A program made the translations under genes and the position numbers. The notes under the pieces were generated by a model. That model saw only the letters and a list, made by a program, of their open reading frames with translations, was not told where the DNA came from and did not search any database. Of a stretch of DNA of 64,000 nt, positions 7,645 to 63,535 are shown in pieces. The stretch's first letter is position 1. Every line of letters begins with the position of its first letter. This DNA comes from Candidatus Wolfebacteria bacterium RIFOXYD12_FULL_48_21 (GTDB lineage: Bacteria; Patescibacteriota; Minisyncoccia; UBA6257; UBA9933), in contig MGIW01000004.1 in the NCBI GenBank assembly GCA_001793945.1, positions 26,843 to 90,842 on the forward strand, in the 5' to 3' direction.

Positions 7645-7935
7645 AATTATCCGCGCACTATGTCTGCGAGCTTGTAAAATAGGGCGCTTCCACATTCTGT
7701 ATTCTCAGTGCGAGCCTGTGAAAATGCCGGATAAAATGGGCGCAAAAAATTTCCTCAGAAAACCCGTTGTTTGAGCGGCGCGCAGGAGCGAGTTCGGGTT
7801 TTCGTAAGAAATTTTCAAGCCCATTCCGTCATTTTTATTCGCTCGCGATTTTTGCCCTACTTTTACTAAAAAAGTAGGAAAAAGCGGATTCCGGCCTATG
7901 CCGGAATGATAGATTTTAGCGATGCGCAACTTAGG

Positions 7936-8247: not shown

Positions 8248-9762
8248 ATGACAACTAAAAAACCCACCGAGGGTTTTTACGGGCTCGGCATTGCGCCGAA
8301 ATTGCTCGAGATCCTCGACAAGAAAAAATTCACCACACCGACCCCCATTCAGCATGAGGCTATTCCGGTCGCCATCAGCGGCAAGGATATGATCGGCATT
8401 GCGCAAACGGGAACGGGCAAAACGCTTGCATTCGGTATTCCGATGATCCAGCGTCTTGCAAGCGGCAACAGCCAGGGCGTCATTTTGGTCCCTACGCGCG
8501 AACTTGCATTGCAGGTTGACGAACAGATACAGGCCATCGGCCGCGATCTCGGATTGTATACCGCAGTTCTGATCGGTGGAGCATCCATCGAAGTGCAGAA
8601 AAAAATGCTGCGCAGAAACCCGCACATTATCGTAGCAACGCCGGGTCGGTTTCTTGACCACATGAACCAGCGCACGCTCCGATTGGAAGGTGTGAACATG
8701 TTGGTACTCGACGAGGCGGATCGCATGCTCGACATGGGATTTGCGCCGCAGATCAACAAGATATTTGAGGCATTGCCGAAGGTGCGACAGACGCTGTTGT
8801 TTTCCGCGACCATGCCGGCAGATATCGTAAAGATAGCACAAAAACACATGGAGCTGCCGGTGCGCGTTGAAATGGCGCGTTCGGGTACTACGGCGGAAAA
8901 TGTCATTCAGGAAATGTTTATCGTTCGCAAGGACGATAAGGATCGTTTGCTGGAATCTTTGCTCGGAACCTATCAGGGAACGGTGTTGGTATTTTCGCGC
9001 ACGCGCCATGGCGCAACGAAGATCTGTCGCGCGATCAAGCGCATGGGGCATACTTCGGCCGAGATACACTCGAACCGATCGCTGTCTCAGCGAAAGGAGG
9101 CCTTGCTTGGCTTTAAGATAGGCAAATATCGCACATTGGTTGCAACCGATATCGCCGCACGCGGCATTGATGTAACGGGAATTGAATTGGTCATCAACTA
9201 CGATCTTCCGGATAGTCCGGAAGATTATGTGCACCGCATCGGTCGCACGGGCCGCGCAGGCGCAAAGGGCCGCGCGATCTCGTTTGCGGCACCAGATCAG
9301 CGGTTCAAGGTGCGCATCATCGAGCGATTGGTTCAGTCACAGATACCTTCCTTGCAGCTTCCGGAATTGCCGCCGCATCGCGAGCCCGCATTTCGTGAAG
9401 AGGAAGAAGATAGCCGGGAATCCCGTGGTGGCCGCTTTGGCGGACAGCGGGGAGGCGCGCGTCGTCCGTTTGGGCGCAGCAGTGAGCGAAGCGAAGGCTT
9501 CGCACCGCGAAAGCCAATGTTTGAAACGCGAGCCCCACATGCAGGCACAGCGCCCGCACGAAGGCCCGCGGCAACACCGTCCGCTTCTGCCGCAATGGGA
9601 GAACGATCACCGCGTGAGCGTGTGATCGCATCCGGCAACCGTGAAGATCGACGCAAGTCGGTCCAGCGTGGTCCGGCCAAAAAAAGCGATCGGGGAGGTT
9701 CGTCTCATGGGCGAATGTTCGGGAAGAAGCCGCGCAAGAGCGCAGGTAAATCTGAACGATAA
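8248..9762 (+). CDS. DEAD-box ATP-dependent RNA helicase with basic RG-rich C-terminal tail
   Basis: Q-motif, AQTGTGKT, DEAD, SAT, HRIGRTGRAG; C-terminal 130 aa low-complexity R/G/S-rich. Confidence 0.93.
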   Translation: MTTKKPTEGFYGLGIAPKLLEILDKKKFTTPTPIQHEAIPVAISGKDMIGIAQTGTGKTLAFGIPMIQRLASGNSQGVILVPTRELALQVDEQIQAIGRDLGLYTAVLIGGASIEVQKKMLRRNPHIIVATPGRFLDHMNQRTLRLEGVNMLVLDEADRMLDMGFAPQINKIFEALPKVRQTLLFSATMPADIVKIAQKHMELPVRVEMARSGTTAENVIQEMFIVRKDDKDRLLESLLGTYQGTVLVFSRTRHGATKICRAIKRMGHTSAEIHSNRSLSQRKEALLGFKIGKYRTLVATDIAARGIDVTGIELVINYDLPDSPEDYVHRIGRTGRAGAKGRAISFAAPDQRFKVRIIERLVQSQIPSLQLPELPPHREPAFREEEEDSRESRGGRFGGQRGGARRPFGRSSERSEGFAPRKPMFETRAPHAGTAPARRPAATPSASAAMGERSPRERVIASGNREDRRKSVQRGPAKKSDRGGSSHGRMFGKKPRKSAGKSER

Positions 9763-9851
9763 GAATTATCAAAATAATTTTTGGAATCGGGTCGCTCGTG
9801 TGATATGCAAATGCAATTTGCATATCACCACTTCGCTGCCGACTCTAAAAA

Positions 9852-9881: not shown

Positions 9882-10142
9882 GTGTGGTGCGTGCCGATTG
9901 GGTCGAGGACAGGCCCTTACCCGCGGGAATGACAGGAAAAGGAGTGCGTATGCAAAACACCTCCGAAGAGGTGTTCTACATACGCAGCAGCTCGAAACCT
10001 TTTACTAATCTTACGACTGGCAAACTGCTGTTCGCTGCTGCGTATAAATATATTCGCATAGGGCAAAACGAAAGTCAATAGGTTGTATAGAGGTATGGAT
10101 ATGTGGAAGGGAGCGATTGGAAATATGCTACAATAGAGGCAT

Positions 10143-10781
10143 ATGAAAACGATCAAGGGGACAATTGCATGGATCGTGATCGGGCTCACATGGGTAACTG
10201 CAATCGTATTGTACGACGGGATGCCGGCCCGCATGGCAACGCATTGGAATGCGGCCGGCGTTGCGGATGGATATGCGGGAAAGGCATTTGCGTTGTTTCT
10301 GATTCCCGCGATCATGCTGCTTGTGCAGGGGTTGTTCGTGTTGATCCCGAAAATCGATCCGTTGCGGAAAAATATCGAAGCATTCAGGGAGCAATTCGAA
10401 GGGTTTGCATTACTGCTATCCGTATTTATGGCCTATTTGTTTGTGTTGATCATGCTATGGAGCAAAGGAGCCTTGTTTTCGATGACTGTTGCGCTTATGC
10501 CTGCATTTGCCAGTATGTTCTACGGCATGGGCTCATTGCTTAAAGGGATCAAACGCAATTGGTTTGTTGGAATCCGTACGCCGTGGACGATGAGTAGTGA
10601 TGTGGTATGGGACAAGACACATGCGTTGGGGAGTAGATTGTTCAAGGTATCGGGGGTGGTCATATTGGCAGGGGTGGTGCTCCCGCAATATGCAGTGTGG
10701 TTCATGGTAGGACCGATACTCGCAAGCACGCTGATTTCAGTGGTCTATTCATACAGAGTATTTAAAAAAGAAAACAAATAA
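10143..10781 (+). CDS. SdpI/YhfL-family membrane protein (DUF1648 + SdpI)
   Basis: Multi-TM, N-terminal DUF1648-like and SdpI-like C-terminal region; TACAAT 11 nt upstream of ATG. Confidence 0.7.
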   Translation: MKTIKGTIAWIVIGLTWVTAIVLYDGMPARMATHWNAAGVADGYAGKAFALFLIPAIMLLVQGLFVLIPKIDPLRKNIEAFREQFEGFALLLSVFMAYLFVLIMLWSKGALFSMTVALMPAFASMFYGMGSLLKGIKRNWFVGIRTPWTMSSDVVWDKTHALGSRLFKVSGVVILAGVVLPQYAVWFMVGPILASTLISVVYSYRVFKKENK

Positions 10782-15304: not shown

Positions 15305-15462
15305 TGTCATCCCGGACTTGACCCTCGGCGTTATTAGTGTTCCGTCAGCCGACGGAGAATGTGCAACGTGCCGGGATACTCGAAGTGCATAAGGTTTCCA
15401 CACCGGGATCTCGTTGCAAAATACGAGATTCTGAATCCGCCGGCTGGCGGATCAGAATGACA
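15305..15462. repeat. Repeat family copy F (divergent/compound): TGTCATCCCGGAC ... GAATCCGCCGGCTGGCGGATCAGAATGACA
   Basis: Shares termini and the ccgccgg-N-ggcgg hairpin with the other copies; lies 3' of the bactofilin-like gene, before its terminator. Confidence 0.55.
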
Positions 15463-15465
15463 CGA

Positions 15466-15496
15466 GAAAGCGCCGGCAATTCGCCGGCGCTTTTTG
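15466..15496 (+). terminator. Rho-independent terminator
   Basis: aagcgccggcaattcgccggcgcttttt. Confidence 0.75.
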
Positions 15497-19083: not shown

Positions 19084-19179
19084 TGTCATCCCCGATCCGC
19101 CGGATGGCGGACGAGAAATCTGCAGATCCCTCTCCGCTTGCCCTGCCTACCGGCAGGCAGGTGGCGGATCGGGATGACA
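19084..19179. repeat. GC-rich inverted-repeat element, family copy A (TGTCATCCCCGATCCGCC ... GGCGGATCGGGATGACA)
   Basis: 17-bp terminal inverted repeats; internal ggatggcggacgag..cagatccctc..ccctgcctaccggcaggcagg shared with copies at 15305, 29238, 32728, 55742, 63336. Confidence 0.8.
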
Positions 19180-19262
19180 GAATAATAAATAATAGACTTA
19201 CTATAATAATACCACATCATATACTACATATTCCATGCGTATGATATACTAAAAGCATAATT

Positions 19263-34767: not shown

Positions 34768-34860
34768 ATTCGGTATGTGGTATACTTAAGGAAAGATCTG
34801 CCGCGTGGTCGAAGCGACAGCATAAAAGTTGGTATCATAATAAAGCACCCATGTAATGCT

Positions 34861-40678: not shown

Positions 40679-41299
40679 ATGGGTAAAGCATGGATCTTTG
40701 ATCTGGATGGTACGCTCGTACGCACGCAAACGGAGTTTCACGCGACGGCAGAAACGGAGGTTTTAAAAGAGTGCGGCATTATAGTGAACCCGGAGGATAT
40801 AACGGTACGCTTTTCTGGCGTGCACACACTGGAAGTGTTCCGACAGTTGGCGCCACATTGTGATGCGCATGAATTGCTTGCTGAGAAGTGGAAGTACATG
40901 ATACGCCTTGCGAATACCAAGCCAATTCATCCAATCGAATGCGCGCCACAACTGATTCATCGGTTGTATACGCGCGGTGTTCCCATGGGCATAGCTTCGG
41001 CATCGCCGACGGCATGGATAGTTAGGTGTCTGACGAGTATTCGCGCGACCCCATACTTCACATGTCACGCCTCGGTTGATGAGGTTGCGCAGGGGAAGCC
41101 GGCGCCGGATGTGTTCTTGCTTGCTGCAAAACGCATGGAAGTCGACGCGGCAGACTGCGTAGCCGTGGAAGACGGGGAGGCAGGCGTCTACGCCGCACTG
41201 GCGGCCGGCATGCAGACCTTTTGGCTTACCGAAAGCGATAAGGTGATTCCCGGAGCGGTAAAGATCGATTCGCTCGTGCAGCTCATCGCCGCCCTCTAA
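40679..41299 (+). CDS. HAD-superfamily hydrolase (subfamily IA, beta-phosphoglucomutase-like)
   Basis: DLDGTLV motif I, S/T motif II, K and (G)DG(E) motif IV; strong SD aggagg. Confidence 0.85.
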   Translation: MGKAWIFDLDGTLVRTQTEFHATAETEVLKECGIIVNPEDITVRFSGVHTLEVFRQLAPHCDAHELLAEKWKYMIRLANTKPIHPIECAPQLIHRLYTRGVPMGIASASPTAWIVRCLTSIRATPYFTCHASVDEVAQGKPAPDVFLLAAKRMEVDAADCVAVEDGEAGVYAALAAGMQTFWLTESDKVIPGAVKIDSLVQLIAAL

Positions 41300-41319
41300 C
41301 TCCCGTACTTCGTTACGGC

Positions 41320-41344
41320 AAAACCCGCTTCGGCGGGTTTTTTA
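41320..41344 (+). terminator. Rho-independent terminator
   Basis: aaacccgcttcggcgggtttttt. Confidence 0.8.
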
Positions 41345-41363
41345 CGGGTGCACGAGTAAGGTC

Positions 41364-41392
41364 TTTACACTTTCCACCATTTCCGATATAAT
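41364..41392 (+). promoter_or_regulatory. Promoter TTTACA-17-TATAAT driving the structured RNA / typA leader
   Basis: Consensus spacing; predicted TSS about 41399. Confidence 0.5.
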
Positions 41393-41398
41393 GGTAAC

Positions 41399-41614
41399 TC
41401 AATTAATAAACGTTGCCCTGAGTGCCCGTTCGGAATCTAATGCCTAGCCAGAATTATAAAATTTTGAGCGAAAGCCGCTAATTTCGAGGAAGCATATCGA
41501 GATACGCTGACGGAGAATTAACGGCTTGCAGCCAAAATTTTGACATTCTGGCAGGCAAGCATGCATGTAATTCCACATGCGGTTAGATTACGAGCGGGCA
41601 CTATGGGCTTTTTT
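41399..41614 (+). ncRNA. Candidate structured RNA (6S-like long irregular hairpin or typA cis-regulatory leader) ending in a U-run 2 nt before the typA ATG
   Basis: Nested long-range stems: 41415-41443 pairs with 41578-41608; 41447-41470 pairs with 41528-41552; central near-palindrome gcatatcgagatacgc; T6 at 41609-41614. Confidence 0.35.
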
Positions 41615-41616
41615 AT

Positions 41617-43401
41617 ATGGAAATCCGCAATATTGCGATCATCGCACACGTAGACCACGGCAAAACAACACTTACCGATGCCATCTTGAAACAAACAGGG
41701 GCCGCCGCCGAGGGGGTCAGTATGGATAGCAATACGCTCGAAAAGGAGCGTGGCATTACCATCTACGCAAAAAACGCGTCCGTCATGTACAAGGGAACGA
41801 AGATCAATATTGTGGACACCCCGGGTCACGCCGACTTCGGTTCCGAGGTTGAGCGCGTATTGCGCTCAATCGACTCCGTATTATTGGTCGTCGACGCACA
41901 AGAAGGCCCGATGCCGCAGACCAGATTCGTACTGAAAAAGTCCCTCGAGCTCGGACTACAGCCAATCGTAATCATCAACAAAATAGACAAGCCGGCTGCA
42001 AATCCTGCGGCAGCGCACGAAATGGTACTGGAATTGTTTATGGACCTTGGCGCGACCGATAAGCAGCTCAATTTTACGACCGTTTACGCGATCGGCCGCG
42101 AAGGAATAGCAAAAAAGAATCTTGAAGACGATTCGAAGGATCTCGTACCACTTTTGGATGTGATCATCGATGAGGTGCATCCAAGTCACATGCGTGACGA
42201 TCTTCCGTTCCGCGCACAGCCGTTCAACCTCGCCTACGACAATTTTTTGGGCCGTCTTGCGATAGCACGCGTGTATGAAGGCACGGTAAAGGTGGGCGAG
42301 ACCATCACTATAAAAAAACCGACCGGCGAAATCCGCGCCGGCAAGATAACCAAACTCTTTACATTCAAAGGGCTGGAGCGTATTGATTCCCCGTCGGTCA
42401 GCTCGGGCGATATTGTAATGATCGCCGGATTGGCGAACATCGACATTGGCGAAACGCTTTGCGCGAACCCTACGCAGGAAGCATTGCCGGCGATCGCCAT
42501 CGACGAGCCAACCATCTCTCTAAACTTTTTGGTCAATGACTCTCCGTTCGCAGGGAAAGAGGGCAAGTTTGTAACGACCCGGCAGATCAAAGAGCGTCTC
42601 GAAAAGGAGCTCGAGGTAAATGTAGGCTTGAAAGTTGACTTCATGGAGGGCGAGAGTTTCAAGGTGTATGGGCGCGGCGAAATGCACATAGCAATTCTGC
42701 TCGAGAACATGCGTCGCGAAGGTTTCGAACTGCAGGTATCCCAACCGCAGGTTGTTATGCATGAAGAAAACGGACACCGCATGGAACCGTTCGAGGAGGT
42801 TGTTATTGATGTGCCGGAAAAGATGGCTGGTGTGGTCATTGAAACGCTGGGTAAGCGTCGCGGCATCATGACGCAGATGAAGCAGGTAGAAAGCTATACG
42901 CGTCTGTTGTTCGAGATCCCTACGCGCGGATTGCTCGGTTACCGTGGCCAGTTCACCATAGATACGCGCGGTGAAGGTATTTTGTGCAGCCGTTTCATCG
43001 GCTTCCGCCCGCATGCGGGAGAGATCGTAAAAACGGAACTCGGTTCCATGATATCCATGGTAACCGGCAAGGCGCTGGCATTTTCATTGGCCAACCTGCA
43101 GGATCGCGGAACATTGTTCATTGAAGCAAATACCGAGGTCTACGAAGGCATGGTTATCGGCAATACATCAAAAGGAAATGACATGACGGTGAACCCGATC
43201 AAAGGAAAGCAGCTTACAAACATGCGCGCATCCCGCGCGGACGAAGCGATTCAGCTGGTTCCACCATTGACGGTAACGCTTGAGCGCGGGCTTGAAGTGA
43301 TGGCCGAAGATGAATATCTGGAAGTGACCCCGAAAAGCATTCGGTTGCGCAAGCAAAGCTTGAACGAGACCGATCGATCTAAGGCATCAAAGAAGAAATA
43401 A
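41617..43401 (+). CDS. typA: Translational GTPase TypA/BipA
   Basis: AHVDHGKTTL G1, DTPGH G3, NKID G4 and EF-G-like domain order. Confidence 0.95.
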   Translation: MEIRNIAIIAHVDHGKTTLTDAILKQTGAAAEGVSMDSNTLEKERGITIYAKNASVMYKGTKINIVDTPGHADFGSEVERVLRSIDSVLLVVDAQEGPMPQTRFVLKKSLELGLQPIVIINKIDKPAANPAAAHEMVLELFMDLGATDKQLNFTTVYAIGREGIAKKNLEDDSKDLVPLLDVIIDEVHPSHMRDDLPFRAQPFNLAYDNFLGRLAIARVYEGTVKVGETITIKKPTGEIRAGKITKLFTFKGLERIDSPSVSSGDIVMIAGLANIDIGETLCANPTQEALPAIAIDEPTISLNFLVNDSPFAGKEGKFVTTRQIKERLEKELEVNVGLKVDFMEGESFKVYGRGEMHIAILLENMRREGFELQVSQPQVVMHEENGHRMEPFEEVVIDVPEKMAGVVIETLGKRRGIMTQMKQVESYTRLLFEIPTRGLLGYRGQFTIDTRGEGILCSRFIGFRPHAGEIVKTELGSMISMVTGKALAFSLANLQDRGTLFIEANTEVYEGMVIGNTSKGNDMTVNPIKGKQLTNMRASRADEAIQLVPPLTVTLERGLEVMAEDEYLEVTPKSIRLRKQSLNETDRSKASKKK

Positions 43402-63311: not shown

Positions 63312-63335
63312 TGTTGTTGCCCCATGCTCGCGCAT

Positions 63336-63489
63336 TGACATTCCCGTCCGCCAGCCCTGCCTGCCGGCAGGCAGGGCTGGCGGAGGAATCCGGTGTGCTG
63401 TCATTCCGTGCCAAGCTTGTCCGCCTACTGGCGGAACACGGAATCTCATATACTTACCACGAGATCCTGAATCGAGTTCAGGATGACAC
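63336..63489. repeat. Repeat family copy E (compound), containing a perfect 34-bp palindrome CGCCAGCCCTGCCTGCCGGCAGGCAGGGCTGGCG
   Basis: TGACATTCCCGTCCGCC ... GGCGGAGGAATC ... CTGTCATTCCG ... CAGGATGACAC; palindrome at 63350-63383. Confidence 0.75.
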
Positions 63490-63535
63490 TGCAGGACATT
63501 TGATTTTTCTCTAATTTCCTCCATACTACTAACCT

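Follow-up and report, generated by a model that had tools for sequence, protein, structure and literature searches.

Correia elements (NEMIS) of Neisseria and ERIC sequences of enterobacteria are MITE-type repeats that are co-transcribed and form long RNA hairpins. Both affect transcription termination, RNase III processing or mRNA stability; ERIC is unusually conserved in sequence, and Correia elements duplicate TA. The repeat family described here occurs in Patescibacteria and differs from both in sequence, ends and target site, and in having one copy that appears to be held at an orthologous site in several lineages, between which synonymous sites are near saturation. With intrinsic terminators and attenuators this copy shares a G+C closing stem followed by a U-tract, an A-rich upstream stretch able to pair with that tract, and a position between promoter and start codon, in this case those of typA. 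It differs from them in its length of ~194 nt, compared to 20-40 nt, and in the lack of a detectable antiterminator. The 6S RNA (RF00013) is likewise ~200 nt long and rod-like in shape and has its own promoter. Finally, the IS1031 group of the IS5 family is reported to insert at 5'-TNA-3' with an exclusive 3-bp repeat, and the inverted repeat published for ISLrh is GAACCTGTCTAGTATCT (PMC12016507; PMC1676026). MITEs of the IS1031 group share with the present family inverted repeats that start with GAG or GAA, the exclusive 3-bp TNA duplication, a length of ~185 bp, the absence of an ORF, and a multi-copy, intergenic distribution in both orientations.

The window, by which the whole 64-kb stretch of DNA analysed is meant, belongs to a Candidatus Wolfebacteria genome (Patescibacteria), and the closest public contig is MGIT01000002.1, with 99% TypA identity. 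A preliminary description of the region in front of typA had pointed to a promoter, two nested long-range helices and a U-run before the start codon, and had suggested a 6S-type RNA, a transcription-attenuating leader or a riboswitch. With moderate confidence, the element is read here as a fixed, domesticated MITE copy of ~185 bp in the typA 5' leader of one Wolfebacteria clade, acting as a cis attenuator or leader. The features of the locus are collected in Table 1, in which the terminator that follows the HAD-hydrolase gene is the end of that gene's transcription unit and is included as context only.

Table 1. Features of the typA locus in the window and the evidence on which each assignment rests
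Feature	Position	Strand	Sequence, evidence or remarks
HAD-hydrolase gene (5' neighbour of the typA leader)	ends 41299		HAD domains by Pfam
Intrinsic terminator of the HAD-hydrolase gene	41320..41343	+	AAAACCCGC-TTCG-GCGGGTTTTTT; fold of -13.7 kcal/mol
Sigma-70-type promoter of leader and typA	41364..41392	+	TTTACA-17-TATAAT; scan score 11/12
A/U-rich single-stranded 5' tail of leader	41399..41414	+	alignment A2 and RNAalifold
GC clamp, 5' half, outside the MITE	41415..41418	+	GCCC; pairs with 41605-41608; invariant in 7/7 copies
Decayed 5' TNA target-site duplication (assigned)	41419..41421	+	TGA in the window; TAA in L082; GAA in others
MITE body (assigned), GTGCC...GGCAC	41422..41601	+	nhmmer family profile, alignment A3, covariation
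Parts of the MITE body			terminal inverted repeats (helix P2), ATCTAAT/GTTAGAT helix, three-way junction, P4-P7, apical domain
Apical motif	41483..41513	+	TTCGAGGAAGCATATCGAGATACGCTGACGG; columns invariant in A3, whole family
One-sided bulge with variable side hairpin, third junction arm	41557..41581	+	on the 3' strand
Decayed 3' TNA target-site duplication (assigned)	41602..41604	+	TAT; homologous to the TNA of mobile copies
GC clamp, 3' half	41605..41608	+	GGGC; invariant; pairs with 41415-41418
U-tract T6, straight after the closing stem	41609..41614	+	invariant in 7 copies; 2 nt 5' of ATG
typA/bipA gene, 594 aa	41617..43401	+	N-terminus MEIRNIAIIAHVDHGKTT; Pfam GTP_EFTU, EFG_C, BipA_C

The TTTACA-17-TATAAT promoter of the preliminary description is present, conserved in relatives, and the sole plus-strand promoter-like site that the promoter scan returned between 41000 and 42000. 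Its -35 box, -10 box and proximal spacer are kept in the related loci L081-L085, and the DNA 5' of the -35 box is unalignable among the loci with a typA copy, where the upstream gene varies (HAD or DoxX). Judging from the position of the -10 box, transcription would start near 41397-41401. Candidates for an internal typA promoter were rejected: TTGACA at 41541-41546 has no conserved -10 box at 16-20 nt, the arrangement TATAAT-N8-ATG is absent, and TGcTATGGG, seen in the relatives, was found on sequence reading to lack the -7 T. Two reading frames were likewise discarded as coding sequences. The putative leader peptide MPSQNYKILSESR (41440-41481) lacks any variation in codon pattern and was treated as chance, and in the 44-aa ORF of the minus strand (41444-41578) the variable columns are clustered and not spaced by three.

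Reading of the sequence upstream of the typA ATG gave no Shine-Dalgarno sequence. Such sequences are rare in the window, the HAD gene at 40679 being an exception. Most genes of the window look leaderless, having TATAAT or TATACT ~8 nt 5' of ATG, often as (C/T)AT-ATG; examples are the gene starts at 10143, 16673, 32877, 58188 and, on the minus strand, 33418. With its long leader, typA is unusual in the window. Several mechanically called ORF starts (calls at 34777, 37035 and 40081; GTGGTATACT, TTGTGCTATAAT) are in fact promoters of the TGnTATAAT type. A separate observation concerns the promoter-proximal spacer at 41381-41391 (TTCCGATATAA), which is conserved in relatives and 82% complementary to the start-codon region at 41613-41623 (TTATATGGAAA). 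This complementarity is probably due to chance and would be relevant only to transcripts starting further upstream.

The stretch 41415-41608 folds into a rod-shaped hairpin of 194 nt, made of one long stem from whose 3' strand a small side hairpin projects; this single rod is common to the MFE, centroid and RNAalifold structures. The MFE of 41395-41616 is -97 kcal/mol, compared to -53.3 +/- 4.5 kcal/mol for 200 dinucleotide shuffles, none of which was as stable (z = -9.7), and no other 200-nt stretch on the plus strand of the window is as anomalously stable as the hairpin region. The nested long-range helices and the central near-palindrome reported earlier were recovered as inverted repeats, at 41415-41440/41583-41608 and 41447-41498/41501-41552; the lower stem alone amounts to -42.5 kcal/mol. 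The fold of the minus strand is nearly equal in the window, at -93.6 kcal/mol, and the plus strand is the more stable of the two in all seven typA copies compared, by 4.7-13.8 kcal/mol. No nucleotides are left unpaired opposite the one-sided 25-nt bulge in the consensus fold. The AAUAAA of the 5' tail is able to pair with the U-tract: RNAalifold joins positions 12-16 to 218-222, and the changes seen there are G-U compatible. A conserved alternative in which the 5' tail would pair with the 3' strand as an antiterminator does not appear in the MFE, centroid or RNAalifold structures.

Neither a repeat search nor the family profile found a second copy of the element in the 64-kb window. Several other of the most stable folds of the window are accounted for by palindromic intergenic repeats that form another family, unrelated to the first, at 15308-15470, 19084-19182 and 63335-63490 (also 9925-9935), with the unit CTGTCATCCC(C)G, a G+C hairpin (CCGCCGGnTGGCGG) and CGGGATGACAG; this family looks REP- or MITE-like. 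Furthermore, a perfect 29-nt palindrome, GTGATATGCAAATGCAATTTGCATATCAC, adjoins a terminator at 9795-9830, and a long imperfect hairpin at 7680-7830 lies within the 600-nt gap before the gene at 8248.

Homologs of the rod were collected by scanning public metagenome contigs once with the apical motif, written as TTYGAGGAAGCA-N10-CGCTGACGR, which gave 66 stretches. About 60 of the 66 are full homologs of ~185 bp on Patescibacteria contigs, 36 of them unique, and the remaining ones are chance matches in G+C-rich coding DNA. L114 is the sole homolog of the scan that precedes typA; the others fill intergenic gaps with unrelated flanks, ~13 copies being co-oriented with their neighbours and ~11 antisense to them. 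Several contigs carry two or three copies, with up to three per 14-15 kb (L088, L134), and the copies have no conserved ORF. One copy is flanked by an RNase J gene, for which the closest named relatives come from Candidatus Taylorbacteria and other Patescibacteria.

The copies of the family start with GAGCC and finish with GGCTC, their inverted-repeat ends being GAGCCTGTTCATAATCT or GAACCTATCCACTATCT and the reverse complements, which match the ISLrh repeat at 12 and 14 of 17 positions, respectively. Identical TNA triplets (TAA..TAA, TTA..TTA and TGA..TGA) stand on both flanks in 22 of the 29 unique mobile copies, compared to 13.3 expected by shuffling (permutation p < 5e-5). As the middle base is identical and not complementary in 22 of 23 cases, the triplet is a direct repeat that lies outside the stem. 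The ends of the window copy are GTGCCCGTTCGGAATCT and AGATTACGAGCGGGCAC, and the family profile (nhmmer) matches 41420-41603 with E = 6e-48. Its flanking triplets, TGA and TAT (TAA or GAA and TAT in the relatives), are decayed, which is expected for an old insertion. These observations make it highly probable that the hairpin core 41422-41601 is a MITE with ends of the IS1031-group type (IS5 family) and a TNA target duplication.

The family departs from other IS1031-group MITEs in several respects. An autonomous IS1031-like element with the family ends was not found in the loci examined, nor was a transposase ORF beside truncated copies or between end pairs in these loci. The window copy is immobile and probably selected. 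In addition, across 30 unique copies (alignment A3) conservation is higher in the interior of the element than in the inner stretches of its inverted repeats, and every helix carries compensatory changes. The GTTAGAT core was also considered as attC-like; this reading was dropped, the core being internal and not terminal, and the interior conserved.

The contigs that carry the family also hold other short MITEs with the same IS1031-type ends and TNA repeats and with unrelated interiors (L127 5739-5899; L134 12346-12506), as well as a deletion derivative of 74 bp and a nested composite of 483 bp (L093 2998-3071; L115 1894-2376). From these sequences, end modules and interiors of the MITEs appear to be exchanged. 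Extra hairpins are inserted at fixed places, in the 3' arm (L104, L121, L122 and L125), in the 5' arm (L102/L141) and at the 5' end (L091/L098/L110/L144/L146), and one insert of the CAGTCTACGACTATCTT type is common to four different family copies; they could be variable RNA arms or secondary insertions. One family copy with an extra internal hairpin, at L116 10469-10688 (the same in L138), ends 1 base 5' of a tRNA on the same strand (10690-10762), and by its position it would belong to the leader of the tRNA precursor.

Covariation across homologous copies, to which the preliminary description had looked, is evident in this family. In the family structure 97.6% of cells are paired, compensatory changes on both sides are seen in 27 of 57 pairs, and all helices covary. 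The covariation score is 0.320, compared to 0.159 in shuffled alignments, of which none in 500 reached 0.320, and controls in which the alignment was slid were 29-44% paired. The family alignment contains 91 G-U cells and 8 A-C cells, and this excess indicates that the strand carrying the motif is the folding strand. The apparent covariation could alternatively stem from correction of one arm by the other in the DNA. The side hairpin at 41557-41581 varies in length and sequence across the family, its changes being paired, and junction and loop nucleotides are invariant throughout, including the apical motif (GAGGAAGCAUAUCGAGAUACGCUGACG), in which two tandem G-A/A-G internal loops surround a short hairpin. 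The typA copies retain exactly the nucleotides that are invariant across the family, at an overall identity of 62-73% to the mobile copies. The shared invariant nucleotides may indicate that the MITE RNA core has an activity of its own, perhaps one other than termination. Two interpretations of the apical motif, as a hammerhead-like element (CUGAnGA / GAAA) and as a C/D-type K-turn, were rejected, as order and pairing register do not fit and Rfam has no match.

Rfam 15, applied to the whole window at the gathering threshold, returned tRNAs only and nothing for the hairpin. At E <= 10, the region 41250-41700 gave weak generic matches confined to the HAD terminator, and no family, 6S and SRP included, matched the hairpin. 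Ten loci of the MITE family yielded nothing besides tRNAs, and no tRNA or tmRNA was found 5' of typA. The 6S-type RNA of the preliminary description therefore falls away, as there is no covariance-model match, the two-sided central bubble is absent, and the homologs form a scattered, multi-copy mobile family. More broadly, the element might be an independent gene for a trans-acting small RNA, 6S-like or part of another ribonucleoprotein, with typA expressed by incidental read-through. A conserved promoter, a terminator-like end, extreme conservation of sequence beyond the pairing, and an invariant tandem G-A apical motif that may resemble a protein-binding site would all suit such a gene. However, besides the negative Rfam results and the missing bubble, the homologs, which are multi-copy MITEs, bring neither a promoter nor a terminator with them, and typA has no alternative promoter, which argues for a single transcription unit. 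A trans-acting RNA is accordingly regarded as rather improbable.

The same observations bear on the riboswitch that had been suggested, in which a ligand would control typA by termination. Such a function would be compatible with the position in a leader, with the terminator-like end and with the three-way junction, whose unpaired nucleotides are invariant. However, the family has no consistent gene class or orientation: it lies in both orientations beside unrelated genes and is upstream of and co-oriented with the same gene in the 8 typA copies only. Furthermore, no mutually exclusive antiterminator structure was seen in the predicted folds, Rfam gives no match, and a near-perfect rod leaves little space for a binding pocket. 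A riboswitch is for these reasons hardly credible.

The preferred reading, a MITE copy domesticated at typA, draws on the comparison of this copy with those in relatives. A TypA protein search returned five clusters at 92-95% identity, the next one following only at 74%. In L081-L085, L001 and L114 alike, the element stands immediately 5' of typA; it thus occupies the same site in seven lineages, with differing upstream genes. The stretch from the -35 box to the ATG is near-invariant among the typA copies. The 222-nt transcribed leader has diverged by 0.5% in L001 and by 5-9.5% in L081-L085, compared to 26% and 45-57%, respectively, at the fourfold-degenerate sites of typA, a difference that points to purifying selection on the typA copy. 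The substitutions in the leader fit the fold: one pair runs through a U-A / U-G / C-G series, several G-C pairs have become G-U, and in L083 three adjacent changes turn an internal loop into Watson-Crick pairs. As far as comparative sequence evidence can establish this, the element is a functional feature of the plus strand, and the typA copy is in all likelihood under selection in place.

The typA subfamily of the MITE was found at typA only, and the promoter, clamp and U-tract, which are not part of the MITE, are conserved as strongly as the MITE itself. With nhmmer, no homologs were found 5' of typA in 80 distant Patescibacteria genomes and 5 outgroup loci. An ortholog with an empty site was not found either: in the nearest outgroups, at 74% TypA identity, the leaders are unrelated; they have a promoter of their own and hairpin/U-run structures and lack the MITE. 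An ordinary MITE insertion that persists as a neutral, selfish relic, its conservation resulting from recent spread or gene conversion, has to be weighed against these data. MITEs tolerate 5' UTR positions, and the family is mobile, with similar copies across many contigs. Nevertheless, the element stands at the same site in seven lineages with a leader far less diverged than the synonymous sites, its target repeat is decayed, and its subfamily is distinct from the mobile copies. Furthermore, the window holds no donor copy for conversion, and the flanking clamp, U-tract and promoter are equally conserved. A neutral relic is thus very improbable.

What the captured hairpin would do at typA is suggested by its host-side flanks. 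The T6 tract and the typA ATG lie where the preliminary description had placed them. The GGGC half of the clamp, followed directly by U6, has the G+C-rich stem and U-tract of an intrinsic terminator, whereas both the U-tract at this position and the GCCC/GGGC clamp are missing from every mobile copy. A generic terminator scan, being restricted to loops of <=8 nt, missed the typA clamp and U6. Removing the MITE and one repeat in an excision model leaves GCCC-UAA-GGGC followed by U6 (-6.5 kcal/mol), which is akin to the short hairpins at other typA loci described below. On the most parsimonious history, the MITE landed in, or was recruited into, an existing short terminator-like hairpin of the typA leader and was then kept.

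In the proposed mechanism, the leader would be transcribed from the promoter at 41364-41392, and the MITE arms would pair in the RNA to form the long rod with its three-way junction. Closure of the rod by the host-side clamp, with U6 next to it, would yield a giant intrinsic-terminator-like hairpin 2 nt before the AUG. Since there is no room for another promoter, typA would be expressed by read-through from the leader promoter. The cis-acting attenuator or leader hairpin would then set the amount of transcription that reaches typA, or let a factor regulate it, and a stable terminated RNA of ~215 nt would arise as a by-product. With no antiterminator seen in the predicted folds, attenuation would either be constitutive or be regulated by a factor acting in trans. 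Of the transcription-attenuating leader proposed earlier, the structure, the promoter and the terminator-like end thus stand, and from these we infer termination; that account had missed the MITE body. The attenuator mechanism itself, both termination or attenuation and any regulation, is put forward tentatively, as the most likely of the roles considered, though one that falls short of even probability.

Alternatively, the U-tract could offer ribosomes an A/U-rich landing site, Shine-Dalgarno sequences being rarely used in this organism. This would be the case if the element were a non-terminating, structured 5' UTR, in which the MITE rod shields the typA mRNA from 5'-to-3' decay by RNase J or serves as an RNase III processing site, and in which the U-rich linker loads ribosomes onto an mRNA without Shine-Dalgarno sequence. 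The absence of this sequence before typA and the leaderless appearance of most window genes agree with such a role, as do the RNase J encoded in related Patescibacteria and the A/U-rich linkers present behind the short hairpins of other typA loci. Moreover, a long near-perfect duplex is a typical RNase III substrate. However, a G+C clamp with an invariant U6 is the canonical arrangement of an intrinsic terminator and is absent in the mobile copies, and an unpaired 5' tail of 20 nt is atypical of a stem-loop that protects a 5' end. A non-terminating UTR is therefore considered unlikely, and the attenuating leader is preferred.

Terminator-like hairpins in front of typA are not confined to this clade. 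Many of the 80 other Patescibacteria typA loci (~70% TypA identity) have a short G+C hairpin and a U-run a few bases 5' of the ATG; examples are L017, L022, L030, L040, L048, L053 and L060, as well as L024, L027 and L052. With a strict detector, a hairpin and U-run within 30 nt of the ATG were found at 14 of 50 typA loci and at 4 of 129 other genes on the same DNA (Fisher p = 4.9e-6), where the start codons of the 129 control genes were taken from raw ORFs and the control frequency is possibly understated. This corresponds to a ~9-fold enrichment over other genes and to about one third of the distant Patescibacteria (L002-L080). The arrangement includes loci at which the upstream gene is divergent, so that the hairpin cannot be that gene's terminator, and for 16 of 26 short typA hairpins a promoter-like site lies at most 45 nt 5' of the hairpin. 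By its recurrence and position, the short hairpin before typA may be a conserved typA attenuator across Patescibacteria.

A further possibility, to which we assign a low probability, is that the covarying MITE core is an RNA module in its own right that has been spread by IS1031-type transposition, the typA copy being a captured, factor-responsive attenuator. Candidate modules would be a protein-binding element, or one that controls transcription or processing, built around the double tandem-GA apical motif and the three-way junction. If this were true, the MITE core would be a mobile regulatory RNA and not a passive repeat.

The literature searched on 6S RNA or MITEs in the candidate phyla radiation/Patescibacteria, and on typA leaders, held nothing relevant. 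The IS1031-type MITE family of Patescibacteria seems to be undescribed so far: an abundant family with an RNA-like interior is in neither Rfam nor the literature searched, and the same is true of the recurrent terminator-like hairpin before typA in Patescibacteria. Purifying selection on a single fixed MITE copy, with synonymous sites near saturation, was likewise not encountered in that literature. An apparently unique regulatory RNA would become a hairpin of transposon origin that selection has maintained in the leader of a gene for a translation GTPase. This would offer a concrete entry point, open to testing, into how genes are regulated in an uncultivated phylum in which hardly any regulatory RNAs are known.
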